Of a stretch of 64,000 bases of DNA, positions 3,211-55,961 are shown piece by piece. Source of the stretch: Camelus dromedarius (lineage: Eukaryota); the NCBI RefSeq assembly GCF_036321535.1, contig NC_087472.1:90832001-90896000 (forward strand). Direction: 5' to 3'. The stretch's first letter is position 1. Every line of letters starts with the position of its first letter. Both the position numbers and the translations under genes were made by a program. The notes beneath the pieces are model-generated. The model worked only from the letters and a program-made list of their open reading frames with translations. It made no database searches and was not told the DNA's origin.

Positions 3211-3572
3211 AACCAAAGTGTTGATAGAGGTATAAGAATTATAATCTTATGACGTTATTAGGAAATATTTACAAAATGATGAACTCCTTTGCTGCTTCAT
3301 TATGTAAACATAGCACTCATAAGGCTTTTAGTATAAATCAAAGATTGAAAAGCATCTCCCCTCACACACACCAGACGCTTCAATTTTTTTTTTCCCTAGC
3401 ATTGCTAAAATCGTCATCATAAAAACCATTCATTAAGTGCCTCTCTTTTGCTTGCTACTGTGTTTGGTGGTGGTCAGATATATCTCTCTGGCATTTTATA
3501 AGAAATCTGGTGATGATATTCAGGGTTTTTTCCTTTTCTTTTCTTTTTTTGTACTTCTTTGATGCCAAACAG

Positions 3573-3816
3573 GAATCTGCAAGCAGAATATGATCGTCTC
3601 AAGCAGCAGCATGAACATAAAGGCCTGTCCCCACTGCCGTCCCCTCCTGAAATGATGCCCACCTCTCCCCAGAGTCCCCGGGATGCTGAGCTCATTGCTG
3701 AGGCCAAGCTGCTGCGTCAACACAAAGGCCGCCTGGAAGCCAGGATGCAGATCCTAGAAGACCACAATAAACAGCTGGAGTCACAGCTACACAGGCTCAG
3801 GCAGCTCCTGGAGCAA
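3573..3816 (+). CDS. DMD: Dystrophin exon 75 (C-terminal coiled-coil region), 244 bp
   Basis: Pyrimidine tract and AG at 3571-3572, GT at 3817. Translates [81 protein letters not shown], recognised as dystrophin. Size matches human exon 75. Confidence 0.98.
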
Positions 3817-4683
3817 GTGAGACCTGCAGCTCTCTAACACGAGATAGTCACCAAAATTTACTTTCCTCTCTTAAAACTATAATGTAGAACTCTGAGTCCT
3901 TTTCAGAAATGCAGCGAGCATCAGTTCGTTCAGTACCTTGGTATGTGCTAGCGAAGTGCTACATATCAGGGACATAAAAAAAAAGTAGGAAAACTAGCAT
4001 GTCTTTTTATATTTACTCCAGATTATTTCCTGCATAAATGTGTATTTGACCGATTGAAAATTCATGTTGGAAAAAAATACCGAAAGGTTTCCACTAGTTA
4101 TGTAAAAGTGAAAATTTTGCCTCTTGAAGTGGAACTCTTTTTTGCAATTAGTCTTATTTTCTGGTATGTCTTTGGGTTTTTTCTTTTGATAATCCCTAAA
4201 ACATAATTTTTTAAGTCTCCATGAAAAATGCAGCAGGCTACTGCATTGTAGGAGGCCCTACCTTACCTGTACATAGTCCTGACTTTTCTGGGAATTTTAA
4301 ATTTTCAGGTATGTTCTCTCCGTCTTATTAGTTAATACTTCATAGAAATATGAATTCTCCATTACATTTTTGTGGCCTCGTATGATTTCACCATTCTCCC
4401 CTGACCTTCTAAGTCTTTCAGTTGTTTTCATGACTTTTATGTATCTTATGCCACTGTAGCCGTGATGTTTTTCAAACTTGTAAGGGGACACAATTCAGGT
4501 ACAAAGACAGTATCCGTGGAGCTTATCACCAGTGAAACTTCCCTATTTTAACCATCTTTGGGAGGTTTCTAAGTAGGAAAGCTCATAATTTCTGAGTCTT
4601 GAGTATCTATAATAGGTTTATGTTTATATATTTGTGTGTTTATTATGAAAAATAATAATTCTATTTTCTTTTGGATGCCTTAG

Positions 4684-4807: not shown

Positions 4808-4889
4808 GTGAGTGTCCGTCTTTGCTGCTCTTGGAGTTTGTTCTCTCTTAAGGGCTGGAAATGGTGCACTGTTTGCTCAGAGGTTTTAA

Positions 4890-6250
4890 TCATCCAGTAA
4901 ATTATCCAGTATCAGTTCTGGACCAGGCATTGTCGTAAATGCCTTAGGGGTACAAAGATGGAGACACTGTTACAGCCCTTAAAGGGCTGGCTACTCAGTT
5001 ACTCAAAACAAGGCAGCGTGGTATTAAACTTTCGTGGATTTTGGAGACCAGAGGCGGCTTTTCTGAGGAACTGATATTTGTGAAGGGTTCTGGAAGATGG
5101 AATAGAAACTGGGCATACGCCAAAAAAGGGGTAGTGTAACTGAAAATTTAGAGACCAGGGCCGTGGGCTGGAAAGAGCCAGTGGTCCAGTTAGTAGAAAG
5201 ATAGGGTCCAAGCAGGAAGTGGGGGGAAGGACGGCTACAGAAGAAGGTTGGGGTCACATTATAGTGACATGACTGTTGGACAGAGATGTTTGGTCAGTGT
5301 CAGGGAGCCACTAAAATACACTTAGCAGGTAAGAAATACCTTAAAAAGAAAGGATTCCAGCAGCTTTCTCTGTCCTAAAGTAAACTGTTTATCAGCGGAG
5401 ACTAGTTAGGACGCAATCACAAAGGGCAAGGTATGGGGGTTCTGAGGACCCGTGCTTGAGAGATGTCTGGGATGGGAGGCGATGACTGTGAGACTTAATT
5501 GAAAATAGGGTACCCAAGGCCAGGGGACTGGCGGGAAAATGTGGAGGAAAGGAAATGAGGGGAGAAGAGCTGGTTGGAAGAAGGTAGTGATCCTTTTGAA
5601 TGTGGAAGTACTGTGTTTGAGGAAGTGGTCAACGGGCAGTCTGCAGAGACTGGAGAGAGACCTCCACAGAACTGATAGCTGAAAGGTGAGAGATGAGCAA
5701 TAGACAACAAAGGTGCCTGAATACAGTACCCTGGAGAGGACCTCCGTTTGGGTGATGGGGTAGCGAAGTAGTGCGGAGCAGTGTTGGAAGTTGGAGAATA
5801 AAGTAATAGCCTCCAAACGGAGAAGGAACTTTAAGACTGACAGATGAAACAGGCAACTCTGTAAAATAAGAAATACGAAGTTTATTGCAGTAACTTACAC
5901 ACAGGTAGGATCAGGTGAACGGTGATCCCAAAGCATTCCCGGCTGCACTCCCTGCCACGGAAAGCGGTGCAGGGGGACTTAAAGCGGCCAGAGCATGTCT
6001 GCAAGGATGGAAACGGGGGGCTTTTCTTTCCCCAGAGGTTTCCTGACCAGTAACCATCTGTCAGCAAAAGGCATTCTTCCTGTTTTCAAAAAGTTGAGAG
6101 GGAAGTTATCCGTCTTGGGTATGTTCCTTGTGAGGAGGCTACAGCTCAAGCATGTCGGGGGTGGGGCTGATGGTGGAGGTGACAAAATGGAGTCACTGTG
6201 GTCCAGCTGCATCAGCAGGCTTAGCTTGAAGGAAGAAGATGTGGGCAGTA
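4890..6250 (-). mobile_element. L2 LINE fragment
   Basis: Purine-rich + strand with antisense L2 3'-end pattern (...ccaggcattgtcgtaaatgccttaggggtacaaagatg...). Boundaries approximate. Confidence 0.6.
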
Positions 6251-8179
6251 GGTCAAATGTGGCAAAGGGCTCAATCACACTGAAAATAAATTACAGCTCA
6301 GTGGATCACTGTTACATGCATTAGCCACTTCTGAGAAAGCATTTTCAGCTAAGAGAAGGGAAGTTGGAGATTTTTTTCCCCAGTGAAAGAAAAGGTCAGG
6401 TAATACTGAAAATGAATATGGCTTGAAGACAGTGAAGAGACCCCCCCGTTGGAACATTATCGAGTAACACAGGGAAAAAGTGTGTTGAGGAAATGGGCAC
6501 TACGGCCTGGTGTCGTTCTTCAGTGGTGTTCTCTCCCTGGGACTGTGCTCTAAGAAAACCAGTAGTTCATGAGGCAGATAAAAGAAGGTCAGAACAAGTA
6601 AAGCACTTTGAAGTGGTAATGAATCCATTGTTACAATGACCATGACAGGGGTGGCCAGCCATCTGCTTACCGGTCCATCCCCCTCCTTTCTCTTCCTCTT
6701 AAGAGCCTGCAGTGAGTCAGCCCCATGCTTCCCCCCCCCCCACCCCGGGTCCTAAACTGGGTTCCCTTGACCCTCCTGACCTTACCTCACAGAAAGGAAG
6801 AAACATGAGTCTGATTCACACTTAAAGCTCTGTTGCCTGGGACCGTGGTGTGTTGAATTCATTTTATGCTTCAGATCTTCCATGAGAGTAGACTGTAGAG
6901 GCGAAGTGCCTAGTCAAAAAGGAAAGGTCAGAGGTGTCGGTGAGTTTTAGGGTGGAAGATTAGGGTAGGGGACCACGGTCAGGAATATTCGGAAGTTGGA
7001 CATCAAAGAAGTAAAATACTTTCCAGCGATGCGTGTGTCTAAGCTGTAGCCTCCCAGGGAACTGCTGCTGCGTGGAGGTGACTGAGGCCGAGCAGTGTGG
7101 CTCTTGGTGCTGGGAAGGCCAGGGCTGTCGGGAATGGGGAAAGATTCCTCAAGATACTGAGGAAGGCAGATGAGGGCATTGAGACTAGAGAACTCAAACT
7201 GTGAAAAAGGAGGCAATACTGGGCGCTGTTTTCCCGGCTCTACCACACGTCGGTGACGGCGAGCAGTCTCTGCGTCCGAGTCTCTTTCTCCAAGTGAGAG
7301 CTAGTGGACTGTTGGGACCATAAATGACAGCACAGCATATGAAAAAAATATTACATGCCTTTGTAAAGTCTATGAATTCCCAAAAAACGGAGTTTTAGTA
7401 CTCTGCTATTTCCTACTGCAGGATTTTTCCCTTAAGCAAAGTATGTGAAACTAAGTTGCATATTTTAGTGGTGAGACGCAGAGCCCCGGGTGCTTAGAAG
7501 CATTAATTATTTAGGCCTGTCAAGACTGGCAAAAAGGCGGTGTGCCCATGAAAGCACCCAAATTATAGTACCCATCCGGCCATGGGCTGGGTGATTTGTG
7601 GAGCTGAGAGGATTGTGGCAGGAGGACAGAAATGCTTTTTCCAGTGGCTGAGTTGGGCTAAGAGAGAACTTGCCAAAATAAAACAGATAGGCTCTGTTGT
7701 CAGTACATTTGTTCTCTGAGAAGACTGGATTCAAAGGTGAGTTTTTTCCAACTGGACGAGCCAACTGCATTTAAGAAGGGAAAAGAACCCACCATCTTCT
7801 TGAAGGATGCACACAGGTGTGTAAAAAATGGAGTGTGCATCCTCATGCGATAAGGCTGGGGGTTGCTGAACCATATTCTGGTAGAGTTGCACTCTTTTTG
7901 TAACCCCAATAACTTTTTAAAGAGATGTATGAGTGAAGTCATATTGGATGATAATACTCATCACTGGTAAGTCTGTCTCGTGTATACATTTTTAAAAGGG
8001 GACAGTGTCCTCAGTTCTATTTAAAAAGACAAATGAGCAGTCTAGCTTCTTTTAGCTCATTTAGTCACGTACACAGGAGTCTGACTCCTTCACTTCTACC
8101 CAATCACTTTGTAAAGAATATGTTATATTGTACTTATTTGCTTACTTTACACAATGTTAAAAGGGTCCTTAGCTTCTTA

Positions 8180-9200: not shown

Positions 9201-10791
9201 GGAGTGGGGAAGGGGAGAAAGACATCACACATCATGATAACACACTTTGAATACATCTCCCTTCTGGGTAAGTCCCCCTCTCCCGGAAACGTAAAGGGGA
9301 CTTCTTTAAACAAAAGTGTGTTACTTAGTAACAGTACAGTTTCACCATTAAAGATAATATGTAGTTCAAGTCAGAATATTCTAATGTTGTAATAGTGACA
9401 GGCTAATAGCTTATAAATCTAGTATGAAGAATAAAAAAAAGTAGTAAGAAATAACAATAACCAAAGTAATTTCTTAATGGATATACAAGGTAAAAAGGTG
9501 TAAATTGTGTTATCAAAACATAAACCACAGTAACCACAAAAGAGAAATAAATCTAAGCATAACACTACAATCTTCAAATGACAAAGGGAGAGAGCCATAT
9601 AAGACAAGCACAGAGGAACTACAAAACAGACAGAAAACAATTTTAAGTGGCAGTAAGTACATACCTATGAAAAAGGTACTTTACATGTAAATTGACTAAG
9701 TTCTCTAATCAGAATCTATGCAGTGCCTAAATGTATTAAAAAACCGCAAGACTCACCTGTTTGCTGCCTAGAATAGATTCACTTTACTTGTAGAGACTGA
9801 GACTGAAGGGATGGAAAGAGATAGTCCATGCAAATGAAAATCAAAACAAACCTGGGAAAAGCTATACTTCTATCAAGCAAAACAGACTATGAAACAAAGA
9901 CTATAATGAGACACAAAGAAGACTATCACATAATAATTAAAAGGTCAAACAGGACTCTAACATTTATAAATATTTATGCACCCAACATAGGGACACCTAA
10001 ATATATAACGCAAATATTAACAGACCTAAAGGGAAGAGATAGCAATACAATAGTAGTGTGGGACTTTAATACCACTCTTATATCAATGGATAGATTATCC
10101 AGACAGAAAAGTCAATAAGGAAGCATTGGACTTGAACCATACATTAGATCACATACACATATACAGAACATTCCATTCAAAAGCAACAGAGTACACATTC
10201 TTCTCAAATGCACATGGAACATTTTCTAGGATACATCATAGGAATGATGTTTGTTAGGCCACAAAACAAGACTCAATAAATTTTAGGAAGATTTAAATCA
10301 TATTGAGCATCTTTTCTGACTACAGTGTTATGAAACCAGAAATCAAAGACAAGAATAAAACTAGAAAACTCACAAGCAGGTAAAGATTAGCAACATACCA
10401 CTGAACTACAATTGAATTGATGAAAAAAATCAAAAGAAACTTAAAAACATACCTTAAGACAAATGTAAATACCATGTACAAAAGTTATGAGATGCAGCAA
10501 AAGCAGTTCTGTGAGGGAAGTTCATGACAATAAATGCCTGCATCAAGAAAAAAAAAAATGTCGGGGATCAGCCAACATGGCAGAGTAGGACACTCATAGT
10601 TCACCCTCTCCCACCAACACTCACATCTACAGACACACCCAGCCAACCAGAGCACCCATCGCCCTCTTCAAAAGACAAAGACATCACGAATCTGTTTATT
10701 CCTGCATATTCTTTAGATAGATAAACTCCTTAAAGACCACAACAGATAACTGATACTCCTTAAGCCACAGTGCCAGAGAGATAGGAGTGAC

Positions 10792-11670
10792 ATGAAGAAG
10801 CAGAGGAACCACTCCCAATTAAAAGACCAAGAGAAATCCCCTGAAAGAACCATCAATGAAATAGACCTTGATGGACTGCTAGATCAAGATTTCAAAAAAG
10901 CAGTGATCAAAGTACTGAAGGAACTAACACAGATAGTGTTTAGAGATATAAAATGTCAAAAATGAAATTGCAGCTATAAAGAAAAGCCAAATAGAATTGG
11001 TAAACTCATTGGCTGAGATGAGAGCTGACCTAAAGGCTGTACAAAGCAGGCTAGATAATGCAGAGGAACGAATAAGTGACCTAGAAAACAGGACACCAGA
11101 AAGCACCCAATCAGAACAGCTGAGAGAAAAACAAATAAAAAACAATGAAAACAATATAAGGGACCTATGGGATAATATAAAGTGTGCCAATCTACGCATA
11201 ATAGAGGTTCCAAAAGGGGGAGAAAGAACAAAGGGGATTGAAAAGGTATTTGTAGAAATTATGACTGAAAACTTCCCAAACCTAAAGAAGGAATCAGATA
11301 TCCAAGTACAGGAGGCTCACAGGGTCCCAAACATACCCACACCAACACATATCATAACCAGGATGGCCAGAGTCAAGGATTAAGAAATGATCCTAAAGGC
11401 AGCAAGAGAAAAGCAAAGAGTGAGTTACAAGGGAACCCCCATAAGGCTCTCAGCTGATTTCTCTACACAAACACTACAGGCCAGAAGGGAGTGGCAAGAT
11501 ATATTCAAAGTCCTGAATGAAAAAAAGATGCAGCCTAGGATACTCTATCCAGCAAAGCTATCCTTTAGAATAGAAGGAGAGATAAAGAACTTCACAGATA
11601 AGAAAAAACTAGAACAGTTTTAGCAACCCTAAACCTATGCTAAAACTAATATTGAAAGGTCTACTATAAA
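10792..11670 (+). pseudogene. L1 ORF1p, disrupted
   Basis: ORF-track fragments 10997-11383 and 11387-11623 (ENFPNLKKE, PIRLSADFS, PRILYPAKLSF). Frameshift near 10950 and an in-frame stop at 11381-11383. Confidence 0.9.
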
Positions 11671-12062
11671 TAGAAAAGCAGCAGGATGCTACAGAAATGA
11701 GAAACTCATAACTAGAAAGGTGAAAACTACCATGAATTACAAATAGAATAAACAAAATTGTAAAAGAAGACAGCTAAATCATTAAGAGTGGGAGAGGGAA
11801 GCAAGAAAACAGAGTCTTTTTCTTTTTTAAATTTTTTGTTCTTCGTACCATAGGTTTGAGCTTCTATTACTATCTGTTTCATGTTTCAATTATAGTAATG
11901 GGTTAATAGACTTTAAAAAAGGGTGACCACAAGCCAAAAACTTACAATAGAGTCACAAAAACTAAATAAAATCCAAGATAATACAAAGGAAAATTACCAA
12001 ACCACAAAAGGAAGAAAGGAACAAAAAGAAAATGCCAAATCAACTGCAAAAATAAGTTCAAA

Positions 12063-15000
12063 ATGGCAATAAACACACATCTATCATTAATTACTGTAAA
12101 TGTCAATGGACTAAATACTCCAGTCAAAAGACAGAGTGGCAGATTGGACAATAAAGCAAGAACCTTCAATAGGCTGCATACAAGAGACCCACTTTAAGGA
12201 GAAGGACACATACAGATTGAGAGTGAAACGATGGAAAAGGATAGCCCATGCAAATAGAAAACCTAAGAAAGCAGGTGTTGCAGTACTGATTTCAGACAAA
12301 ATAGACTTTAAAACAAAGGCCCTAAAGAAAGATAAAGAAGGACATTATATAATAATTAAAGGAGTAATACAAGATGAAGATATTACACTCATTAATACAT
12401 ATGCACCCAATACAGGGGCACTTAAGTACACGGAGCAACTACTAACAGAGATAAAGGGGGAAACTGATGGGAATACAATCATTGTTGGAGATCTTACCAC
12501 CACAGTAACATCACTAGACAGATCTTCCAGACAGAAAATAAATTAGGCTACAGAAATTACAATAGAAAAATTAGACTTGGTGGATATTTTCAGAGCATTA
12601 CACCCCCAAAAATAGGATATACATTCTTTTCAACTGCACATGGAACATTTTCTAGGCTTTATCATCTACTTAGGCACAAAAGAAGCCTCAACAATTTTAA
12701 GAAGATAGAAATTATCTCAAGCATCTTTACTGACCACAATGCCATGAAACTAGACATCAACTCAGAAAAACAAAGGAGAAAAAAAGGACAGCATGGAGAT
12801 GAAACAGCATGCTACAAAAAAAAAACCAATGGGTCAATGATGAAATCAAAGTTGAAATTAAAAAACACCTTGAGACAAATGGCAATGAAAACACAACCAC
12901 ACAAAATTTATGGGACACAGCAAAAGCTGTGCTAAGAGGGAAGTTTATAGTGATACAGGCCTTCCTCAAAAAAGAACAATCTCAAATAAACAATCTAACC
13001 CACCCGCTAAAAGAATTAGAAAAATAAGAGCAAAAAAAAAAAAGCAGAAGGAAGGAAATAATAAAGATCAGGGAGGAAATAGATAAAATATTTAAGATTT
13101 AAAAAAATAGAAGAAAAACCAATCAAACCAAAAGCTGGTTCTCTGAAAATAAATAAAATCGACAAACCTCTGGCCAAACTCAAAAAGAAGAAAAAAGAGC
13201 ATAAATAAGCAAAATAAGAAAGGAAAATGGAGAAATTACAACAAATAACATAGAAATACAGAATATCATTTGAGAATATTATGAAAAACTATATGGAAGC
13301 AACATAGATAACCTAGAGGAGATGGACAAGTTTCTGGAAACATAAATCCACCAAGACTGAATCAAGAAGAAACTGACCACTTGAACACACCGATCACTAG
13401 AAGTGAAATCGAATTAGCAATAAAAAAAACCTCCCTACAAATAAAAGTCCAGGACCAGACAGCTTCACTGGGGAATTCTAGCAAACATACAAAGAACTCA
13501 TACCAATCCTCCTCAAACTCTTCAAGAAGTTTGAAAAGGAGGGAATACTCCCAAACTCATTCTATGCAGCCACCATCACCCTGATACCAAAACCAGGCAA
13601 AGACACTACCAAAAAAGAGAATTACAGACCAATACCAATGATGAAGATAGATGCCAAAATCCTCACCAAAATATTAGCAAATAGAATCCAACAGCACATA
13701 AAGAAGATTATACATCATGGTCAAGTGGGGTTCATCCCAGGGACACGAGGGTGATTCAACATACGCAGATCAATCAATGTAATACACCACATCAACAAGA
13801 GAAAGGACAAAAACCACATGATCATCTCAATAGATGCAGAAAAAACATTTGATAAAATTCAACACCCATTTATGATAAAAACTCTCACCAAAGTGGGTAT
13901 AGAGGGAACATATCTCAACATAATAAAAGCTATCTATGACAAACCTACAGCCAGCATAGTACTCAATGGTGAAAAACTCAAAAGCTTCCCAGTAAAATCT
14001 GGGACAAGACAAGGCTGCCCACAGTCACCACTCCTATTCAACATAGTCTTGGAAGTCCTCACCACAGCAATCAGGCAAGAGAGAGAAATAAAAGGGATCC
14101 AAATTGGAAAAGAAGAGGTAAAAGTGTCACTGTATGCCGATGATATGATACTATATATAGAAAACCCTAAAAGGTCCACACAAAAACTACTAGAGCTGAT
14201 CGAAGAATTCAGCAACGTAGCAGGTTCAAGATTAACGTACAAAAATCAGTTGCATTTCTTTACACTAATGATGAATCAACAGGAAAAGAAAACAAACAAT
14301 CCCCTTTAAAATAGCACCCAAATTAACAAAATACCTAGGAATAAATTAACCAAGGAGGTGAAAGAATTATACACAGAAAACTATAAACCATTGATGAAGG
14401 ATATTAAAGAAGACTTTAAAAAATGGAAAGATATCCCATGCTCCTGGATTGGAAAAATCAATACTATTAAAATGGTCACATTGCCCAAGGCAATCTACAG
14501 ATTTAATGCAATCCCTATCAAATTACCCAGGACATATTTCACAGAACTAGAACAAAACGTAATAAAATGTGTATGGAACCACAAGACCTAGAATTGCCAG
14601 AGCATCACTGAAGAAAAAGAAAGAGGCTAGAGGAATAACTCTCCCAGACTTCACACAATACTATAGAGCTACAGTCATCAAGACACCATGGTATTGGTAC
14701 AAAAACAGACATACACACCAATGGAACAGAATAGAGAGCCCAGAAATGAACCCACAAACTTTTGATCAACTCATCTTTGACAAAGGAGGCAAGAATATAC
14801 AATGGAATAAAGACAGTCTCTTCAGCAAATGGTGTTGGGAAAACTGGACAGCAGCATGTAAATCAATGAAGCTAGAACACTCCCTTACACCATACACAAA
14901 AATCAACTCAAAAGGGATCAAAGACTTAAACATAAGATAAGATACAATAAACCTCCTAGAGGGATATATAGGCAAAACATTATCTGACATACATCTCAAA

Positions 15001-15807
15001 AATTTTCTCCTAGAAGAAATAAAAGCAAGAATAAACAAATGGGACCTGATGAAACTTACAAGCTTCTGCACAGCAAAGGAAACCATAAGCAAAACAAAAC
15101 GACAACCTATGGAATGGGAGAAAATTTTTGCAAAAGATGAAACTGACAAAGGCTTGATCTCCAGAATATATAAGCAGCTCATACAAATTACTAAGAAAAA
15201 AACAACCCAATCCAAAAATGGGCAGAAGACCTAAACATACAATTCTCCAAGGAAGAAATACAATGATCAATAGGCACATGAAAAAATACTCAATATTGCT
15301 AATTATCAGAGAAATGCAAATCATAACTACAATGAAGTGTCACCTCACACCAGTCAGAATGGCTATCATTCAAAAGTCAACAAATGACAAATGCTGGGGA
15401 GAAAAAGGAACCCTCCTGCACTGCTGGTGGGAATGCAGCCACTGTGGAAAACAGTGTGGAGATTCCTCAAAAGACTAGGAATAGACTTACCATATGACCC
15501 AGGAATCCCACTCCTGGGCTTGTATCCAGAAGGAAATCTACTTCAGGATGACACCTGCACCCCAATGTTCATAGCAGCACTATTTACAATAGCCAAAACA
15601 TGGAAACAGCCTAAATGTCCATCAACAGGTGACTGGATAAAGAAGAGGTGGTATATTTATACAATGGAATACTACTCAGCCATAAAAACCGACAACATAA
15701 CGCCATTTGCAGCAACATGGATGCTCCTGGAGAATGTCATTCTAAGTGAAGTAAGCCAGAAAGAGAAAGAAAAATACCATATGAGATCGCTCATATGTGG
15801 AATCTAA
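12063..15807 (+). pseudogene. L1 ORF2p (endonuclease/reverse transcriptase), disrupted
   Basis: Fragments at 12136, 12809, 13818, 14358, 14569, 15049 and 15391 in different frames carry canonical ORF2 motifs (CIQETH, GTRQGCP, YADD, WCWENW). Confidence 0.95.
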
Positions 15808-16942
15808 AAAACAAAAAGAACATAAATACAAAACAAAACAGACTCGTTGACATAGAATACAAACTTGTGGTTGCCAAGGGGGAAGGGAGTGAGAAGGGAC
15901 AGACTGGGAGTTTGAAATTTGTAGATACTGACAGGCATATGCAGAATAGATAAACAAGATTATTCTGTGTAGCACAGGGAAATATAAACAAGATCTTGTG
16001 GTAGCTCACAGCGAAAAAGAACGCGACAATGAATATATGTATGTTCATGTATAACTGAAAAATTGTACTCTACACTGGAAATTGACACAGCATTGTAAAC
16101 TGACTATAACTCAATAAAAGAAAATACCTTTACACTTAAGTGAACTACAAAAAGAAGAGCAAACAAAGGCCAAAGTTAATAAAAGAAATACATTTCAGAG
16201 CAGAAATCAATGAAACAGAGATGTAATACACAATGGAAAAGAGCAACAAAACTACGAACTTGTTTTTTGAAAAGATAAACAAAATAGACAAAACCAGCTA
16301 GACTCACCAAGAAAAAGGACTCAAAATCAGAAATGAAAGAAGAGATATTACAACTTACACCACAGAAATACAAAGAATCATAAGACTGAAGAATAATTAT
16401 ATGCCAATTGGATAACCTAAAGGAAATGGGTTAATTCAAAGAAACATACAACCTGCCAGGAAAGAATCATGAGGAAATAGAAAATCTGAACAGATCAATA
16501 ATAAGCAAGGAGATTGAATCCATAATCAGAAGTCTCCCAGTAGAGAAAACCCCAGAATCAGATGGTTTCTCTGGTGAACTCTACCAAACATTTGAATAAC
16601 TAACACCAGTCCTTCTCAAACACTTTAAAAAAAACTGAAGAGGAAATAATACTTCCAAAATTATTTTACAAGGCCAGCATTACTTTGATCCCAAAGCTGG
16701 ATAAGGACACTACATGAAAACTATACACCAATATCTTGTGGATATATAGATTGAAAAATTCTCAACAAAATATTTGCAAACCAAATTTGACAATATATTA
16801 AAAAGATCATACACCATGACCAGTTGTATTGATCCTTCAGTTGCAAGGATGGTTCAACATATATAAATCAATCCATATGATATACCACAGTAAAAGAATG
16901 AAAGATAAACATCATCTGATAATCTCAAGAAATGCAGAAATA

Positions 16943-17838
16943 CAATGTTTTTTTTAATTTAACACCAAAAGCAAAGGCAACAAAACCAAAAATAAACAAA
17001 TGGGACTGTATCAAACTAAAAAGTTTCTGCACAGCAAAAGAAACCATTAACAAAAGGGAAAAATAACCTACAAAATGGGAGAAATATTTGCAAATCATGT
17101 AACTGTGACAAGTGGTTAATATTCAAAATAGACAAAGAACTTGCACAACTCAATAGCATGAAAAAAGTCCGATTTTAAAATGGGCAGGAGATCTGAATAG
17201 ACATTTTTCCAAAGAAGACACACACATGGCCAAAAGGTACGTGAAAAGGTGCCGAACATCACTAATCACTGGAAATGCACATCAGAGCCACCATAAGCTA
17301 GCATCTCACACCTGTTAGGGTGACCATCATCAAAAACACAAGCAGTGGGGCTGGGCCAGGAAGAGAGCCACGCCCGGAAGCTGTTCTTCAGGGGAGGGTT
17401 TGAGGAGCTGGCAGCAGTGGTCTCCCAGGAGGAATTCGAGACACCTTGCTGCTGCTGGGAAGAGTGGTTGGGGCGGCAGGGCCTCGGGCCTGACTCTGCC
17501 ACCCTGTGATGCTCACTGCATCCCTCACAGCTCCTCCTCTCCTGGCCCCTCTACCTGGACCTGCAGTTACTTCCCCCAGAACAGGGGAGTGAACTGCCCA
17601 TCCGAGGGCCACGCGCTCTCTGAAACTTTCTGGTATCATATACTGAATGAACTGAGTCCAGTGTTCTTATATCATTCATTTTGAAATCACATTTGTGAAA
17701 GCATACATTTTCAATCGGAACCTGAGACCCATCTCTGCAATTCATGACTATGCCAATTGCCACAAACATTTTAAGCACTTTAAACAAACACATGAATTAT
17801 TCCTCAATTCAACAAAAAAGTATTAAGACTATGAGTTA
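16943..17838 (+). repeat. Copy A of a ~0.9 kb direct duplication (partner 46558-47457)
   Basis: By-eye alignment shows about 15 substitutions and 3 small indels over ~900 bp. First ~400 bp is L1 ORF2, last ~500 bp is non-L1. Confidence 0.97.
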
Positions 17839-18876
17839 CGTTTACATTTGTAACTATAGTGATGAATGTTAACCAAGCTTATTATGGTAATCAATTAGCA
17901 GTATATACATATTTCAAATACTTATGTAGTACACCTAAAACTAACACAATGTTATATGTCAGTTATATCTCAATAAAAATAAATACAAAGGAATAATAGC
18001 TACTAATTTCAGTATCTTTCACCACCATTCAATACTCACCAGCTAATAATCAGCATCATTTATATACCATTAATATTATAAGAATGTAAACACACCATTT
18101 TTATGTAAAATTGAAACCATCTACCATAAATCATAATTTTAAAAGTCACTGAAGGTAAATATCAGGTACTAGATAAATTTTTTTTTTCCTTCTGAAAAAC
18201 TGGAGAAAGGCAGGAAAGGTATAGGTTGGAAATTGCCTAAAAACAAAATATGTGATTTAAATCACTAATCCAAAGGAAAACAATGTTGAGCATATTTGCT
18301 CATACACAGCCCCCCTTTTAAGAGAAAATCATATTCTAATACACAGGTTCTTTTTGTGTAAAGAGAAAATAGTTTGCTTGGGTGTAAACAAAATCATAAG
18401 TATAAGGATTCTTGTGTCTCAGCTGCACAGACTGGCTCAAATCACTTTTCAGGCAAGTAGAACCATTATCGTCGTTTCAATTAAGGAAAAGGAAGTGAGT
18501 TGGATGGCCTTTTATCCCTTCAAGAAAACCTACAACTATGGTGCATTTCGGAAGACTTAAAGAATATCTTGCCCATAGCAAACTATTTCATTTCTTTTAT
18601 CTCAGGTTAAATTGAGTTATTTCACTTCTTTTTTCCTTCAGTTCAGCAATGTCTATCATATCATGCTGTATCAGAGTACTTTTAAAACTTTGACTATGTC
18701 TTTCCTTATTTTGAAACATTCATTTTTAAGATGTTTCAGTCATTTCTTTGGCCCAACTTCATTGTAGCCATGAAACCTATAGCTAATAATCCAAAACGGA
18801 TTTTTATGCATGTCTGTGGGAATCACCTCGGAGTAAAGTCAAACTGAAGAATTAATGCTAAAGAATTGCCATTAAC

Positions 18877-19657: not shown

Positions 19658-19710
<53 letters not shown>

Positions 19711-19805
19711 TATATGTAGGTATATGCATTACTGGGACATTATACTGTACACCAGAAATTAACCCATTGTAACTGACTATACTTCAGGTTAAAAAAAAAA
19801 AAAAA
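18877..19805 (+). mobile_element. 5'-truncated young L1 with poly(A) tail and internal (TA)n
   Basis: ORF2 C-terminal fragment (18992-19360), 3'UTR similar to 15808-16120, A-tail 19791-19805, (TA)n at ~19663-19707. Confidence 0.93.
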
Positions 19806-25321: not shown

Positions 25322-25796
25322 CAGTGGCTTTTGACCTTTTTTGACCATTATCCATAATTAAGAGAAACATTTTACACATCAAACTGCAATAAAGATATGA
25401 AACAAATTATTTGTGTGTATCTGTACACACACACATGTATATATCCACTGTGTATACACCACACATATATGTATATGTCACATAGATACAAAGGTCAGAA
25501 ACAAGTTTTATGAAACAGTTCTTTCTATACTGCATATAATTCACATTGTTTCTGTTTTATTTTTTTAAAAATAAAATGCTGCTTGCAACCCACTAAATTG
25601 ATTTTCTGATCCAGTTATATTCAATAACTTATAATAACCTTTATTGGAAAAGAATATGAAAACAAATATATGTATGTGTGTATATATATATATATATATG
25701 TATACATATGCATGACTGTGACATTATGCTATACACCAAAAATTGACACATTGTAACTGACTATACTTCAATTAAAAAAATTTTTTTAAAAAACTG
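25322..25796. mobile_element. Charlie4-like hAT remnant interrupted by a short young L1 3' end (~25613-25780, + strand)
   Basis: ...taagagaaacattttaca... and ...aaatgctgcttgcaacccactaaattgatttt... pattern. L1 tail ...aaattgacacattgtaactgactatacttcaattaaaaaaa. Confidence 0.65.
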
Positions 25797-40120: not shown

Positions 40121-41775
40121 ATTTTTAAAGCCTAATTATTCTTAAATTTTTAGGTTCAACTAGAAATCTAATTTTCCTGTATATCCTGTAGATGACCTCT
40201 GTATAATAAGAACACTCCCTTTCTGAGAGTTCCAGTTCAACATGGCCACATAGGAGCCTCCTGAACTCACTTCCTCCCCCAGGCACACCAAATCTATCTA
40301 CAAATAGAACAATTCCCTCTGCAAGAAGCTCACAATCTATCCCACTCCTACACGTCAGGCAAATTAAGAAAAAAAAAAAAAACCACATGGAAACAAGTAG
40401 AAGAAGCTGAGACAGGGTGTCACCATAAACCTCACCCCCTGGCATGGAAACACACAACCAGATGGAACTCGCAACTACCAGTTTCTCCCTAAATAGAAAA
40501 GGGTTTGAATCCATTATCTGGAACCCTAATTTTTAAGAACTCTACCAGAGACACAGGCTCCCCAAATATCTAGCTTTGAAAGCCAACAAAGCTTATGTCC
40601 ATGAGACCTACAAGGCTATAGACTAAGAGACAGTCCTTAAAGGGCTCATGGCGGACTCACCATGGCTAACCCCCCAGGACACAGAGGCAGCAAACAGAAA
40701 CACCCAGTCTTTCTTTGAAAGAGGCCAATTTGCTTATCTTAGTAACTGTGGCCTGAGGGGCAGTATCCTAACTGAACACACATCTAGGAGCTGACTACAG
40801 CGCTCCCTGGAGACCCCGGGCACCACACTGGTGCTCTCCTGTGCCTCGCTCCAGGTCACTGGTATCTCCCAGAAAGGAGCTTGTGAACACATCTGGCACC
40901 TCAGTTTCTGTGGCTACAGCCCAGGGGCCAGTATCATTTGGTTATTTGGTTTGGTAGCCAGCGGGGGGTACACATCACTGTTGGGTTCCAGAAGAGTGTA
41001 ACAAACATAGAAACAGTTCTTAACCAGCCATCCCCTCAGGGCGTCGTGTGGAGGCAGCAGACAGAAATGCCCAGTCTTTCCCCGAAAGATGCCTACTTGC
41101 TTATCGCAACACCTACAGCCCGAGGAGTGGGCTTCTACTATAATGCGCATCAAAGTCAGCCCGCAATGCTCTCCACGGACCCCAGAGCCAGTGCACATTA
41201 TCTTCGTGCTCTCCTCTGCCTTGCTCCAGGCTGCCTGTACCTCCCAAAAAGGAGCTTGTGAACACGCCTGGTGCCCCGGTTTCTGAAGCTATTGCCCAGG
41301 GAATGCCCCTTGATTGCCTGGCTCCGGTGCCCAGTGGGGCTTACATTCACGGGTCCCACAAGATTGTAACAAAGAGAGAAGTAGTTCTTAACCAGCTATC
41401 CCCACCAAGGCACAGTGCAGAGGCAGCAAACAGAAACAACCACCTCCCAGTTTCACCCTGAAAGAGAGGGGTGACTATGATTCAGCCTGCTTCTAGATGC
41501 TGATCGAGATCCTCCCCTCTGGGATACTGACAGACCTTGGCACACCTTCAACTGCTAGGAGCCACTAAGAACAAAGAAGTCTGCTTTGATAATTGCAAAG
41601 GTTGGAGAGACAACCTAGAGCTGGGCAGGACGGAACAACAGTTTTGATCTCCCACACAGACCACTCCTTCCAGACTAGGAGAGGTGGCAGTTTTATCTAA
41701 TGCATGGATACCTACACAGAGAGTGCAGGAAAATTAAGAAACAGAGGAATATGTTCAAAATGAGTGAACAACTTA

Positions 41776-42087
41776 CGAGCATACCTCATTTCACTGTACT
41801 TCACTTCATCCCACTTCACAGAGATTATGTTTTTTTTTTTTCAAATTGAAAGTTTGTGGCAACCCCGCATTGTCAGATGCTGGCTAGCATTTTTTAGCAA
41901 TTAAGTTTTTTTTAAATTATATATATTGTTCAGACATAACAACGGACACTTAAAACACTACAGTATAGTGTAAACATAACTTCTATATGCCCTGAGAAAC
42001 CAAAAAATTCACCAGGCTCACTTTATTGCTATACTCCCTTTATTGCAGTTCTAAAACCAAACAGGAGATATCCCCAAGGTATGCCTA
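41776..42087. mobile_element. Tigger1-derived MITE inserted in L1 ORF1
   Basis: Inverted termini cgagcatacct / aggtatgccta, TA on both sides (41774-41775, 42088-42089), internal Tigger1 motifs (aaattgaaagtttgtggcaacccc; actacagtatagtgtaaacataactt). Confidence 0.85.
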
Positions 42088-43919
42088 TAAAACGCTAGAA
42101 AAGGCCTTAATAAAATGGAAATAAGTGATTTACCTGATAAAGAGTTCAAAATAACAGTCATAAAGATGCTCACAGACGTCAGGAAAACAATGCATGAACA
42201 AAGTGAGGATTTCAATGAAGAGAAGATATAAAAAAGTACCCAACAGAAATTATAAGAGCTAAAGAACACAATAACTGAACTAAGAAATTCAATAGAGGGG
42301 TTCAACAACAGACTAGATGAAGTGGGGAAAGGATCTGTGAACTTGAAGACACGCAATAAGAAAAAGAATAAAAAAGAGTGAAGACGGCTTAAGGGACATA
42401 TAGGACCATAAAGGGGATCAATATTTGCATTAGAGGAATGCTAGAAGAAAAGAGAGAGACAAAGGGGCAGAAAACTAATTTGAAGAAATAGTGGCTGAAA
42501 ACTTCCTTAATTTCAAGAAGGAAACAGATAATCAGACCTAGGAAGATGAGAGGGTTCCAAATAAAATGACTCCAAAGAGACTCAAACCAAGACACATTAT
42601 AATTAAAGAATCAAAAGTTAAAGGCAATGAGAGAATTATAAAAGCATCAACAGAAAAGCACTTTGTTACCTCCAAGGGACCTCCCCCATAAGACTGCCAG
42701 CAGGGTTTTTAGCAGAAACTTTGCAAACCCAAAAGGGACTTTTGTGATATAGTCAAAGAGCTAAAAACAAAACAAAACAAAACAAAAAGGCAACCAGAAT
42801 ACTCTATCCAGCAAAGTTGTCCTTCAGAATTGAAGGATAGTTTTCCAGAGAAGCAAAAGCTGAGGAGTTCAGCACCACTAGACCAGCCTTACAAGATATA
42901 TTAAAGGAACTTCTTTAAGCCAAAACAAAAGGGTGCCAATTAATAATAGGAAACTGCATAAAAGTATAAATCTCACTGGTAGAGGTAAATATATAGTTAA
43001 ATTCAGAACAATCGAATGCGCTAATGGCAATGGGTCAATCACTTATAAATCTAGTGTGTGTGAAGTTTAAAAGACAAAAAGTGGTAAAAATAACAATAAC
43101 TACAATAATTTGTTAATGGATACACAAGATAAAAAGATATAAATTGTGACATGAAAAACATAAAACATTGGGCAGTAGAGTAAGAATGTAGGGCTTTAGA
43201 ATGTGCTCAGACTTAAGTTGTTATCAACTTAAAATTGATTGTTATAAATATGTTATATGTCAGCCTCACGGTATCCACAAAGCAAAAATCTAAAGTAGAT
43301 ACACAAAAGATAAAGAAAAACAAATCTAAGTGTACTACAGAAAAGCATCAAATCATAAAGAGGGAGAAGTAAGGAACAAAGGAATCACAAAAAAGCCAGA
43401 AAACAAGGAACAAAATGGCAATACATTCATATCTATCAATAGTTCTCTAATCAAAACACATAGAGTGGCTGAATGCATTAAAAAAAAAACCCAACTATAC
43501 ACTTCTTAAAATAGACTCACTTCAGCTCTCAGGATACACATATTGAAAATGAAGGGATGGAAAAAGATATTCCATGCAAAGCAAATCCAAAAGACCGTAA
43601 AGGTAGCTATACTATATTAGACAAAATAAGACTTAAAGGCAAAGCTGTAACAAGAGACAAAGGTCATTATAATAAAGGGATCAATTCATCAAGAGTATAT
43701 AACAATTGTAAATATATACACATACAACATCAGAGCATCTAAATATATTAATCAAATACAAAAGACATGAAGAGAGTAACAGGCAACAATGCAGCAGTAG
43801 TAGGGGACTTTTAACACCCTACTCTCACCAATGGATAAATCACCCAGATAGAAAGATCAATAAGGAAACACTGGGCTTGAAACACACGTTATATCAGATG
43901 GACTTAGCAGGCATTTACA

Positions 43920-44196
43920 ACAAGTTTATATAGTATAGCACTGGGAACTAAATTCAATATCTTGTAGTGACATATGGTGAAAAAGAATATGAAAACAAGT
44001 ATATGTATGCTCATGTATGACTGAAGCATTATGCTGTACACCAGAAATTGACACATTGTAAACTGACTATACTTCAATAAATATATACATACACACACAC
44101 ATATGTGTGTATATGTGTCTGTGTGTGTATATATATACATATATATATGTATATATGTGTGTGTGTGTGTGTGTGTGTATATGAAACAAGAAAAAC
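43920..44196 (+). mobile_element. Short young L1 3' end nested in old L1 ORF2; tail converted to a compound TA/CA/TG microsatellite
   Basis: TSD CAGGCATTTACA (43908-43919) / CAGACATTTACA (44197-44208). Microsatellite ~44081-44182. Confidence 0.9.
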
Positions 44197-46557
44197 CAGA
44201 CATTTACAGAACATTCCATCCAAAAGCAGCAGCAGAGTACACATTTTTCTCAAGCATACATGGAACACTCTATGGATAGATCACAGGTTAGGCCACAAAA
44301 CAAGTCAATAAATTTAAGAATACTGAAATTATGTCAAGCGTCTTTTCTAATTATAATGCTCTTAAACTAGAAATTAATTCCAAGATAAAACTGAAAAATT
44401 CATATACATGTGGAGATTAAACAACATACAATGAACAAAGAAGAAATCAAAAGAGAAATATCTTGAGACAAATGAAAATGGAAACACAACATACCAAAAT
44501 ATATGGGATACATAAAAGCAGTTCTAAGGGGGGGGAGTTCATAGCCAGAAATGCCTACATCAAGTAACAAAGTTGTCAAAAAAAAAAAAAAAACAAAACT
44601 AAATTTACACCTCAAGGAACTAGAAAAAGAAGAACAAATGAAGCCCAAAGTTAGTAGAAGGAAAGTAACAAAGACCAGAATGGAAACAAGATGAAAAACA
44701 CAGTAGAAAACATCAATACAACTGAGAGCTGGTTTTTTGAGAAGATAAGCTAGAGTCACCAAGAAGAGAAGAGAGAAGACTCAAATAAAATTAGAAATGA
44801 AAGAAGAGACACTCCAACTAATCTCATAGAAATAGAAAGGATCATAAAAGACTACTATGAACAATTATCCACTAACTAACTGGACAACATAGAAGAAATG
44901 GATAAATTCCTAGAAACATTCCACCCACAAAGACTGAATCATGAAGAAATAGAAAATCTAGACAGATCAATTATTAGTAAGGAGATTTCATCAGTAATCA
45001 AAAACTTGCCAACAAACAAAAGTTCAGGACCAGATAACTTCACCTGTGAACTCTACCAAACATTTAAAGAAGAATACCAATCCTTCTCAAAGTCTTCCAA
45101 AAAACAGAAGAGGGAATACTTCCAAATTCATTTTATAAGGCCAGCATTAGGGTGATACCAAAACCAGACAAAGACACTACAAGAAAAAAAAATTACATGA
45201 CAATACCCATATGAACATAGATGTAAAAATCCTCAGCAAAATATTAGCAAACTGAATCCAACAATACACTAAAAGGATCATACAGCAGGATCAAGTGGGA
45301 TTTTTTTTCCACGGATGCAGAAGGGCTCAACATCCACTAATCAATGTGACAGACCACATTTTAAAAACAAAGAATAAAAACCATATAACTATGTCAATAG
45401 ATGCAGAAAAAGCATTTGAAAAAATTCAACATCCATTCATGATAAAAACTCTCAACAATGCAGGTATAGAGGGATCGCACCTCAACATAATAAAGGCCAC
45501 ACATGATAAGTCCACAGCTAACATGATACTCAACAATGAAAGAGTGAAAGCTTTTCCTCTATGATCAGAAACAAGACAAGGATGCCTACTCTCACCCCTT
45601 TTATTCAATATAGTACTGGAAGTCATACCCAGAGCATTAGGCAAGAAAAAGAAATGAAAGAAACTCAAACTGGACAGAAAGAAGTGACACTGTCTTTATT
45701 TGCAGATGACATGATATTAAATACAGACAACCCTAAAGACCTCACCAAAAAAAAAAAAAAATAGAATAAACAAATTCAGTAAAGTTGCAGCATATAAAAT
45801 CAATATACAAAAATATCTTGCATTTTACACACAAATAAACTATCAGAAAGAGGAATGAAGAAAATAATCCCATTTATAACTGCATCAAAAAGAATAAAAT
45901 ATGTATGAATGAATTTAACTAAGGTGGTGAAAGATCTGTGCACTGAAAACTCTAAGACATTGATGAAAGCAGTTGAACATGACACAAATAAATGGAAAGA
46001 TACTGTGTGCTCATGGATTAAAAAATTATTATTGTTAAAATGCACATACTACCCAAATCTATCGACAGATTCACTGCATTCCCCATCAAAATTTCAATGG
46101 CACTTTTCACAGAAATAGAATAAACAATCCAAAAATTTTTATGGAACCACAAAAGACCCTAAACAGCTAAAGCAATCTTGAGAAAGAAGAACAAAACTGG
46201 AGGCATCACGTGCCCTGGTGTCAAACTATATTACAAAGTTACAATAATCAAAACAGTATAGTATTGGCATGAAAACAGACACATAGAAAATGGGGCAGAA
46301 TATGGAGCCCAGAAATAAACTCACACATACATGGTCAATTATTTACAACAAAGGAACCAAGAATATACAACGGGAGAACAGTCTCTTTAATAAATGGTGC
46401 TGGGAAAACTGTATAGCCAAATACAAAAGAATGGACCACTATTTTACACCATACACAAAAATTAACTCAAAATATACTGAAGACTAGAATGTAAGACCTG
46501 AAACCATAAAACTCCGAGAAGAAAACATAGAGGGTAAGCTCCTTGAAACTCCTCTGG

Positions 46558-47457
46558 CAATGTTTTTTTTTTTAAATTTAACACCAAAAGCAAAGGCAAC
46601 AAAACCAAAAATAAACAAATGGGACTGTATCAAACTAAAAAGTTTCTTCACAGCAAAAGAAACCATTAACAAAAGGAAAAAATAACCTACAAAATGGGAG
46701 AAATATTTGCAAATCATGTAACTGTGACAAGTGATTAATAGTCAAAATAGACAAAGAACTTGCACAACTCAATAGCATGAAAAAAGTCCGATTTTAAAAT
46801 GGGCAGGAGATCTGAATAGACATTTTTCCAAAGAAGACACACACATGGCCAAAAGGTACGTGAAAAGGTGCCGAACATCACTAATCACTGGAAATGCACA
46901 TCAGAGCCACCATAAGCTAGCATCTCACACCTGTTAGGGTGACCATCATCAAAAACACAAGCAGTGGGGCTGGGCCAGGAAGAGAGCCACGCCCGGAAGC
47001 TGTTCTTCAGGGGAGGGTTTGAGGAGCTGGCAGCAGTGGTCTCCCAGGAGGAATTCTAGACACCTTGCTGCTGCTGGGAAGAGTGGTTGGGGCGGCAGGG
47101 CCTCGGGTCTGACTCTGCCACCCTGTGATGCTCACTGCATCCCAGCTCCTCCTCTCCTGACCCCTCTACCTGGACCTGCAGTTACTTCCCCCAGAACAGG
47201 GGAGTGAACTGCCCATCCGAGGGCCACACGCTCTCTGAAACTTTCTGATATCATACACTGAATGAACTGAGTCCAGTTTTCTTATATCATTCATTTTGAA
47301 ATCACATTTGTGAAAGCATACATTTTCAATCGGAACCTGAGACTCATCTCTGCAATTCATGACTATGCCAATTGCCACAAACATTTTAAGCACTTTAAAG
47401 AAACAAACACATGAATTATTCCTCAATTCAACAAAAAAGTATTAGAACTATGAGTTA
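46558..47457 (+). repeat. Copy B of the ~0.9 kb direct duplication (partner 16943-17838)
   Basis: See copy A. Here the L1 half is colinear with the upstream ORF2. Confidence 0.97.
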
Positions 47458-48609
47458 GGTTCACTTCACCATGTCTTTGTTGTACTCTAAACTTGCTAGG
47501 CTTTCAAAGACTTACCTGGTAAGGCAGGGCTTCTCAGTGGTGTAGTCCCAATGTGTTCCAGGAGTGTCGAGGTCTGACACCTTGCAGTTGGGGGTGGACA
47601 GATACAGCCTGTAACCTTCGCCTCCTGCAGTCAACCAAGAATGCCCTACAATTAAAAATCTATTTCTCTGTATGCCATGATGCGAAAATAGCTGGGAAAT
47701 ACTGCATGGAAGGAATACTTTTACCCTCACAAGACTTGAGGTTACTGGTTCAATTCCTGTCCGTAATAAAACTAAACATCCCAGGCATGTTGACAATTTT
47801 TATCAGTCAGGAATTGGTGGCTAAGATGGGTAACTCTTCTTACACCACAGGTGGAAAGGTATTCCATCCCCTTTTATAGTCGACATGATAGCAGGGGGAC
47901 TTCAAGCCATAGACGAAGTAAGTTTTTGCATACATTCCTCACACCCTGTGTTCCCGGGTTTGGCTCACCCCTTTACCTGGGTGGGTAACTGCCGGCCCCT
48001 ATACTAGGGCTCAGAGTCCTAGCTCACTGGCTTCACTCATGGTTTACACTGGTCATATTGACATAACATTAATAAAAACCCTTTCAATCTCAAAAATTCC
48101 TTGGTTAACAGAATAAATTAGCTGCTCATCCTAAGTATAACCAGGTTGCACCTGACTTCCTTCAACCACAAGCGTTTCTCTGCAGAGACTGGCATTTGGG
48201 CTGGGACGATTCTGCATTATGCAGGATTCTCCCTCCTTTTGCCATTCTCCCAGTCACTGTCATGGGAAGGCCACCTCAACACATCTCCAAAGGCCTCCTA
48301 GGGAAGCCGTAGACAAGTACTGGTCTCCTTCCAGCCTGAATACAGGCTGTATTCTTTTCACACTCTCCCTAACTGGCAGGCTCCGGCTCTTAGAAATGTT
48401 TTAATGGCATTAGCTCTTGCATACTTTTCCTATTTTGTCCAAGCCTCCAGTCACTTCTCTCAAGCAATTTAATAGCACCACCCCAGATGAAAACACTAAC
48501 CATCTGATAAAAGCCAGCAAATAAAGAAATGTTTTCCACGAGTAGAGAAAGGAGCTATTCTCATTTTTTGCATTCACTTAAAGGGAACAACTGGTCTCTC
48601 CGTGCATTT

Positions 48610-55167: not shown

Positions 55168-55961
55168 AAGGAACCCTCCTACATTGCTGGTGGGAATGTA
55201 GTTTGGTGCAGCCATTATGGAAAACAGTATGGAGATTCCTCAAAAAACTAAACATAGACTTAGCATATGATCCAGCAATCCCACTTTTGGGTATATATCC
55301 AGAGGGAACTTTAATTCAAAAACTGACATGCACCCCAATGTTCATAGCAGCACTATATACAATAGCCAAGACATGGAAGCAACCTAAATGTCCATCAACA
55401 TATGACTGGATAAAGAAGTTGTGGTACATTTATACAATGGAATACTACTTAGCCATAAAAAGAATAAAATAATGCCATTTGCAGCAACACGGATGGACCT
55501 AGCAATTGTCATTCTAAGTGAACTAAGCCAAAAAGAGAAAGAAAAATGCCATATGATATAATTCATATATGGAGTCTTAAAAAAAAAAGAAAAAAGGACA
55601 CTATGAACTCATCTACAAAACAGAAACAGACTCACAGACATAGTAAACAATCTTATAATTACCAGGAAAGAGGGTAGGAAGGGATAAATTTGGGAGTTTC
55701 AGATTTACAAATGTTAGCCACTATATATAAAAATAGATTTTAAAAGTTTCTTCTGTATAGCACAGAGAACTATATTCAACATCTTGTAGTAACCTTTAAT
55801 GAGAAAGAATATAAAAATGAATATACATATGCATATGCATGACTAGGACATTGTGCTGTACACCAGAAACTGACATATTGTAATTGACTGCACTTCAATA
55901 AATACAAAAACAAAACAAAAACAAATACAAACCAATACGATATTTGGCCAAAAAAAAAACC
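55168..55961 (+). mobile_element. 5'-truncated young L1 with 15 bp TSD
   Basis: TSD ACCTCAGTTTTCTCA (55153-55167) / ACCTCACTTTTCTCA (55962-55976). ORF2 C-terminal fragment 55203-55472. Similar to 19015-19805. Confidence 0.92.

Follow-up and report, generated by a model that had tools for sequence, protein, structure and literature searches.

The window analysed here, i.e. the whole 64,000-nucleotide stretch of Camelus dromedarius DNA (90.83–90.90 Mb on a 114 Mb contig; assembly size 2.3 Gb), holds two copies of a 0.9 kb segment, one of them (copy A) lodged inside an old L1 (L1#2) and the other (copy B), 30 kb downstream, at the end of another L1 (L1_B). Self-BLAST of the window at E ≤ 1e-10 gave 19 pairs. 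The best of these, 16948–17842 against 46566–47461, was 97.3% identical in a 900-column alignment containing 15 mismatches and 3 gap openings, while the runner-up reached 83.5%. Global alignment placed the left edge at 16943 in copy A and 46558 in copy B, and the right edge at about 17845 and 47464, and showed that the copies differ by 15 substitutions (1.7% differing) and three 4-nt indels. The host L1s of A and B are merely 67–73% alike. Thus, the original prediction was right in giving 16943–17838 and 46558–47457 an identity of ~97–98%, and in placing this value far above the likeness of the two host L1s.

The segment consists of the last 400 bases of L1_B (S1), followed by 45 non-L1 bases (S2) and by 458 further non-L1 bases (S3). 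In total, 503 non-L1 bases were copied, in agreement with the earlier estimate that copying had run ~500 bp past the L1 homology. A search of the 2.3 Gb assembly, in which all seven candidates were scored, found two genomic copies of the complete segment (S1+S2+S3), namely A and B.

Host L1s and joints at the two copies

All L1 fragments were mapped to one coordinate system, made of the B-side L1 and the tail of another copy. At A, where all features lie on the plus strand, the 5' part of L1#2 (9329..10557; L1 coordinates 2360–3972) is 83–84% identical to the corresponding DNA at two further loci, C and D, which are described below. It is followed by a nested, younger, full-length L1 (L1#1, 10558..16115), which sits in an A-run of L1#2 and is not in C/D, and then by the 3' part of L1#2 (16116..16942), which is 85% identical to C/D and 71–78% identical to 37 other L1 copies. 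This 3' part stops within the reverse-transcriptase region, at L1 coordinate 4810, which corresponds to 74 residues into the RVT_1 match of L1_B (E 4e-17). Next come S1 (16943..17342), from the C-terminal part of ORF2 in the B-type L1 (L1 coordinates 5959–6362), S2 (17343..17387), the first 45 non-L1 bases, common to A, B, C, and D, and S3 (17388..17845), the remaining 458 non-L1 bases, present in A and B only. The last piece, 17846..17998 (L1 coordinates 7069–7213), comprises the final ~150 bases of an old L1, which is presumably L1#2.

The L1 coordinates at A therefore pass from 4810 to 5959, L1 sequence ends at 6362, and non-L1 DNA intervenes before L1 sequence is taken up again from 7069 onward, the host L1 having lost ~2.26 kb. 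This is the layout that had been predicted, with a host L1 that jumps from the start of the reverse-transcriptase domain, resumes at its extreme 3' end (expected at ~17849), and has ~2 kb replaced. Neither an A-tail nor a target-site duplication was visible on copy A, again as anticipated, and the end of S3 carries no polyadenylation signal. When L1#2 and S1 at A were compared with Pfam, with stops written as X, no family was recovered (two proteins; also three frames). The missing 5' part of L1#2 was not found within the window, and no target-site duplications of L1#2 were recognisable. At the left joint, two bases belong to neither side (TA in A, CA in C/D), and the right joint has 0–3 bases of overlap; both joints are old and these stretches are short. 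Among the best 40 of 102 candidates scored for the right joint, A alone spans it.

At B, also on the plus strand, L1_B extends from its 5' UTR, whose 5' end lies at least as far as 40694, to the start of the duplicated part (40694..46557), and S1 (46558..46961) is colinear with it. The claim that the L1 half of the segment continues the upstream ORF2 at this locus was confirmed by independent L1 copies, which align straight through 46558. An RVT_1 domain was matched at ~45187–45834 in one frame of L1_B (Pfam, E 4e-17), this being the sole piece to give RVT_1. L1_B remains colinear to 46961 (coordinate 6362), ~850 bases short of the normal L1 end, and S2+S3 (46962..47464) are non-L1 DNA that continues into genome-unique sequence; a search with the right flank of B returned one candidate, itself. 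An exon-like segment of 109 nt lies on the minus strand at 47516..47624, outside the duplication. It has an AG acceptor and a GTAAGT donor and begins 52 bases past the end of copy B, so that copy B would be the start of the following intron.

Other repeats were noted around L1_B. Its 5' UTR contains an internal direct repeat (40831–41067 and 41206–41436, 74.6%), as expected of a monomer-type L1 promoter. A module of ~190 bases is the terminal part of L1#1-type elements and occurs at 43919–44107, 15953–16142, 19659–19786, 25616–25775, and 55744–55926; within L1_B it also stands as an insert of its own. The non-L1 part of the segment opens with ~130 bases (17343–17470 and 46962–47090) of an old low-copy interspersed repeat, which in A/B is broken off where L1_B ends and which has other copies in L025 and L027 (at ~1446–1617).

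B is supported as the original locus of the segment by comparison with other L1s in the genome. The best genome matches of L1_B just upstream of the duplicated part (45730–46557) are 76–80% identical (39 rows), and S1 lies equally far from the best other L1 copies (77–80%, 36 rows), L1#2 being farther from them (71–78%); the right flank of B is, in addition, unique. Because S1 departs in all four paralogues from the majority of 16 other L1 copies at the same 46 sites, S1 in A, B, C, and D can be traced to L1_B. At two unrelated loci, copies of the old low-copy repeat align through the S2/S3 point, which argues that the arrangement of A/B at this point is ancestral and the break in C/D derived. 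The choice of B as the source in the original prediction is in line with this equidistance of S1 and L1_B, with the unique right flank, and with the ancestral arrangement at S2/S3.

Two further loci with the same joint

L1#2, the left joint, S1, and S2 were also found together at locus C (94.654–94.665 Mb on the same contig, C37; minus strand), 3.8 Mb from A, and at locus D (96.233–96.243 Mb, same contig), 5.4 Mb from A. C and D form a 10.4 kb inverted pair, 97.6% identical, with 1.57 Mb between them. The duplication has its left edge close to the 5' end of the L1#2 copy, and there is a 200-N assembly gap ~4 kb from C. The left joint, S1, and S2 match base for base in position in A, C, and D. 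With a 141-base probe for the left joint, only A, C, and D spanned it among the best 40 of 950 candidates scored; of the other scored rows, 35 matched just the right half of the probe and 2 just the left half. The L1/non-L1 joint is thus present at no fewer than four loci and the L1#2/S1 joint at three or more, all on one contig and within 5.4 Mb; these copy counts are lower bounds, as only the best candidates of each search were scored. The original prediction had held that many genomic copies of the L1/non-L1 chimera would indicate a retrotransposed subfamily. Several copies do exist (at least four loci), but none carries the marks of retrotransposition, and they are not many dispersed ones.

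C/D part from A/B after S2, where another near-full-length L1 follows with its 5' UTR, ORF1, and remaining parts. The 5' UTR of such elements starts at query 60–68 in 15 of 38 other rows, and earlier in none, while S2 ends at 61; the near-full-length L1 at C/D therefore begins 0–4 bases past S2. Two L1 copies of that 5' UTR type have unrelated upstream DNA. Past the near-full-length L1 at C, a search for S3 gave nothing credible. On its 5' side, L1#2 is longer by at least 360 bases at C/D than at A, and its 5' part passes at C/D uninterrupted into its 3' part, with a clean empty site in place of the nested L1#1.

We also noted at C an inverted old L1 fragment (A-oriented 16545–16862) that starts at L1 coordinate 6351, close to the coordinate at which S1 ends (6362). 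No layout was found in which a simple inversion would link this piece to the end of S1, and the proximity may be a coincidence.

Divergence and relative ages

The substitution divergence between A and C/D was 11% in the 5' part of L1#2 and 13–14% in its 3' part, compared with 6.5–6.7% in S1+S2 (Fisher p = 5e-5 and 0.008 for the contrast between L1#2 and S1+S2). B differed from C/D in S1+S2 to the same extent (6.5–6.7%). A and B differed by 0.9% in S1+S2 and by 2.4% in S3, and C and D by 1.4–2.4%.

To polarise the changes, we used 16 other L1 loci as outgroups for S1, and three loci plus three L1s from fetched regions for L1#2; sites with gaps, with fewer than three outgroup letters, or with no 60% majority were left out. 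In the 3' part of L1#2, derived sites numbered 33 for A and 46 for C/D, and a further 26 sites stayed unpolarised. For S1, 46 derived sites were common to all four copies; the C/D stem had 17 derived sites, the A/B stem had 1, and 1 site was unpolarised. Private changes inside S1 numbered 1 in A and 2 in B, which favours neither direction for the latest exchange. The A lineage thus carries 33 derived changes over 717 sites in its L1#2 flank vs 2 over 390 in S1 (p = 5e-5), which indicates conflicting histories of flank and module. The A-private changes reach to within 11 bases of the joint (16921, 16929, 16931) and then nearly cease. On the C/D stem, the corresponding figures were 46/717 in L1#2 and 17/390 in S1; the stem is not significantly shorter in S1 (p = 0.18), and by itself this demands no second re-templating.

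The nested L1#1 served to order the events. The best genome matches of its 13400–14400 portion are 92–94% identical in all 39 non-self rows, which suggests that L1#1 has changed by ~3% on its own lineage; A and B carry ~0.8–1.3% per lineage. Because C/D are without L1#1, the split of A from C/D appears older than this insertion. The joint would then have arisen before the A–C/D split, the split before the arrival of L1#1, and the present similarity of A and B would be the youngest of all. It follows that the 97–98% identity of A and B does not date the paste, since the joint is shared with C/D and the nested L1#1 seems older than that identity.

The differences between A and B are unevenly spread: 4 substitutions lie in 16943–17122, none in the 315 bases of 17123–17437, and 11 in 17438–17845. 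The contrast between the identical core and the edges (0/315 vs 15/588) is significant (Fisher p = 0.002), and the chance of a gap as long as 315 bases is 0.006–0.008. This patchiness suggests at least two layers of exchange between A and B. Paralogous homologous segments were in place before the exchange, as seen from the shared joint, S1, and S2, from the 11–14% divergence of L1#2, and from the lack of L1#1 in C/D, and the 315-base core stands out by its higher identity from the less similar paralogous sequence around it. The near-identity of A and B most likely reflects later ordinary gene conversion between repeats, as judged from these sequence comparisons.

Rates clearly differ between the loci, to judge from the polarised changes and from the distance of S1 to its best L1 matches, which are 73–76% identical for C and 77–80% for A. 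Since parting from S1 of C/D, S1 of B has gained only 3 derived changes, where ~14–18 would be expected (P ≤ 6e-4) if the B–C/D split in S1 were as old as the split of L1#2 or the insertion of L1#1. Because of this small number, either a second re-templating at C/D, over ~4–5 Mb, or grossly unequal rates would be needed.

As to the kinds of change, A/T→G/C made up 66 of the 96 changes on the C/D stem (9535–10557 and 16116–17342), with 10 in the reverse direction, a pattern that resembles G/C-biased conversion; on the A lineage, the figures were 23/47 and 17/47. RNA/DNA editing was considered for the C/D stem, where A>G is the commonest change, and was discarded, A>G not exceeding T>C beyond what the A-rich composition of the strand gives. 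The A-private changes in the 827-base stretch 16116–16942, flanked by the nested L1 and the chimeric joint, comprise 24 transversions vs 9 transitions, A>C being the commonest; they match no particular outgroup. Neighbouring L1s share the C/D-private changes at one or two sites at most and so are poor candidates as their donors.

Origin of the chimera and comparison with known systems

The history that probably underlies these data is that of an old chimera in which non-allelic gene conversion has since re-templated the module that came from B. The layout and number of the copies, the joint they have in common, and the contradictory divergences are observed directly; the order of events and the conversion mechanism are inferred from them, as follows. 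L1_B, an old L1, would have lost its last ~850 bases and is now followed by ordinary intron sequence. At an early date, the final 400 bases of L1_B and ~500 bases of intron would have been copied and joined into L1#2, replacing 2.26 kb of it and leaving no tail and no target-site duplication, for which reason templated DNA repair may be proposed for the original joining. The chimera would then have been duplicated, one copy being A and the other giving rise to C and D. After the split of A from C/D, the full-length L1#1 would have inserted into the host L1 of A and, much later, the module at A would have been overwritten by non-allelic gene conversion from its partner 30 kb away, in a tract bounded by the limits of A–B homology. 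At least one still more recent tract, of 315 or more bases, would have followed. The C/D module seems to have been re-templated too, before a phase of fast, A/T→G/C-biased change in the C/D lineage. A scheme in which L1#2 split at ~4.6% per lineage and the module was exchanged at ~1.3%, followed by a 3–4-fold faster, G/C-biased C/D phase, is consistent with the data but unproven.

The templated repair or gene conversion proposed in the original prediction thus stands as far as the pair itself, B as its source, the lack of retrotransposition marks, and the loss of ~2.26 kb are concerned, but not as a single recent paste, the joint being present also at C/D and the flank being 11–14% diverged. 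Some observations sit uneasily with the old, re-templated chimera. S1 of B has too few changes, which calls for the second re-templating or the grossly unequal rates mentioned above; the longer 5' part of L1#2 at C/D implies that A lost that part later or that A is the copy; it is unusual for conversion to take in nearly all of the 900 bases and to reach heterologous edges; and the A-private changes in the flank are oddly transversion-rich.

It is unlikely that a single recent local event accounts for the arrangement, with a break in the host L1 of A repaired from B over ~0.9 kb, C/D as later duplicates, and the flank divergence due to local rate anomalies. A does show the features of a templated insertion, namely a copy of another locus at a break, a deleted target (2.26 kb), and neither tail nor target-site duplication. 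The A–B identity of 97.3% also speaks for a recent event, as do the rates, which are not clock-like (17 derived changes on the C/D stem of S1 vs 1 on the A/B stem; best L1 matches of 73–76% for S1 of C and 77–80% for that of A). However, a single event dated by the A–B identity is at odds with a joint that is common to C/D and appears older than L1#1: C/D are without this element, whose best matches are 92–94% identical, and their split seems older than an insertion that itself predates the A–B identity. Furthermore, the A-private changes come as close as 11–21 bases to the joint and are nearly lacking inside the module, and A differs in S1+S2 by 0.9% from B vs 6.5–6.7% from C/D. It appears quite unlikely that the module has been kept similar to its source, at loci 30 kb and ~4–5 Mb away, by repeated one-way re-copying. 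As the tracts reach heterologous joints, one-side-homology copying or an RNA template from the transcribed intron would fit such a process better than ordinary conversion, and B would be a persistent donor locus.

We consider very doubtful an RNA-mediated origin, a kind of 3' transduction, in which transcription of the 3'-truncated L1_B read through its end and the RNA was then placed in a break by reverse transcription or joined by template switching, giving a small retrotransposed family. L1_B lacks its own 3' end, so that sense transcripts would enter S2–S3, the L1/non-L1 joint occurs at four or more loci, and at C/D the block adjoins exactly the 5' terminus of a full-length L1. Template-switch chimeras are expected to show such a junction with the 5' terminus of a full-length L1. 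On the other hand, there is no poly-A, target-site duplication, or polyadenylation signal at the end of S3; the joint is known at four loci on one contig, within 5.4 Mb, two of which result from a DNA-level duplication of 10.4 kb; and the conflicting ages of module and flank would be left unexplained. The poly-A tail and target-site duplication that would mark a retrotransposed chimeric subfamily are both lacking at A, and the block at C/D runs into another L1. An RNA-mediated route may nevertheless apply to the first joint and to the joining of the block with the full-length L1 at C/D. An assembly artefact, in which one copy or the 315-base core would stem from mis-joined or cross-corrected reads, is highly improbable. 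The 200-N gap 4 kb from C could be taken as a hint of it, but A and B have 15 substitutions and 3 indels between them and distinct flanks on both sides. In addition, 20 of the 24 listed runs (nine studies) hold 81–93% of the words sampled from 16700–18100, including the private flanks of A, although this is a weak test in which joint-spanning words are inseparable.

The arrangement can be set beside several known systems. It resembles TE-mediated rearrangements in having old L1s at all breakpoints, in an L1-rich region (compare parts of PMC9675761), and differs from them in that the L1–L1 joint links position 4810 to 5959. These positions being non-homologous, the L1–L1 joint of A is not a product of homologous L1–L1 recombination. 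With L1 3' transductions and template-switch chimeras it shares the combination of an L1 piece and flanking non-L1 DNA at several loci, one copy of which adjoins the 5' end of a full-length L1. Poly-A, a target-site duplication, and a high copy number are the defining features of L1 3' transductions and chimeric retrocopies, and none of them is found here. The original joint is like a templated insertion, or filler-DNA capture, in that nearby sequence was copied at a break, with the target deleted and no tail or target-site duplication; parts of PMC2567098 document the capture of foreign DNA at evolutionary breaks in the case of numts. Unlike in templated insertions, the insert is 0.9 kb long, comes from 30 kb away on the same strand, and has a joint that is old and itself duplicated, so that any microhomology at its origin is no longer readable.

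Parts of PMC10172114 describe human non-allelic gene conversion as frequent, as raising variant density, as G/C-biased, and as able to act over megabases; parts of PMC4467073 and PMC3790853 are related sources on interlocus gene conversion and the concerted evolution of segmental duplicates. The likeness lies in paralogues that are closer than the age of the duplication allows, in patchy identity with an identical core, in an unchanged copy number, and in one G/C-biased lineage. The differences are that the block measures just 0.45–0.9 kb, has heterologous joints on both sides, and seems to be converted over nearly its whole length, and that an intron segment acts as donor to chimeric L1s. All mechanisms invoked are already known, and no new mechanism or element is revealed. 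The locus shows how a near-identical local duplicate can mask an old rearrangement, the identity of paralogues being unfit for dating a paste. As a small natural case of module-limited concerted evolution, it combines four copies, one heterologous joint, a nested L1 as an internal clock, and a fast, G/C-biased lineage, and conversion-tract models could be tested on it when the comparison is extended to related genomes.
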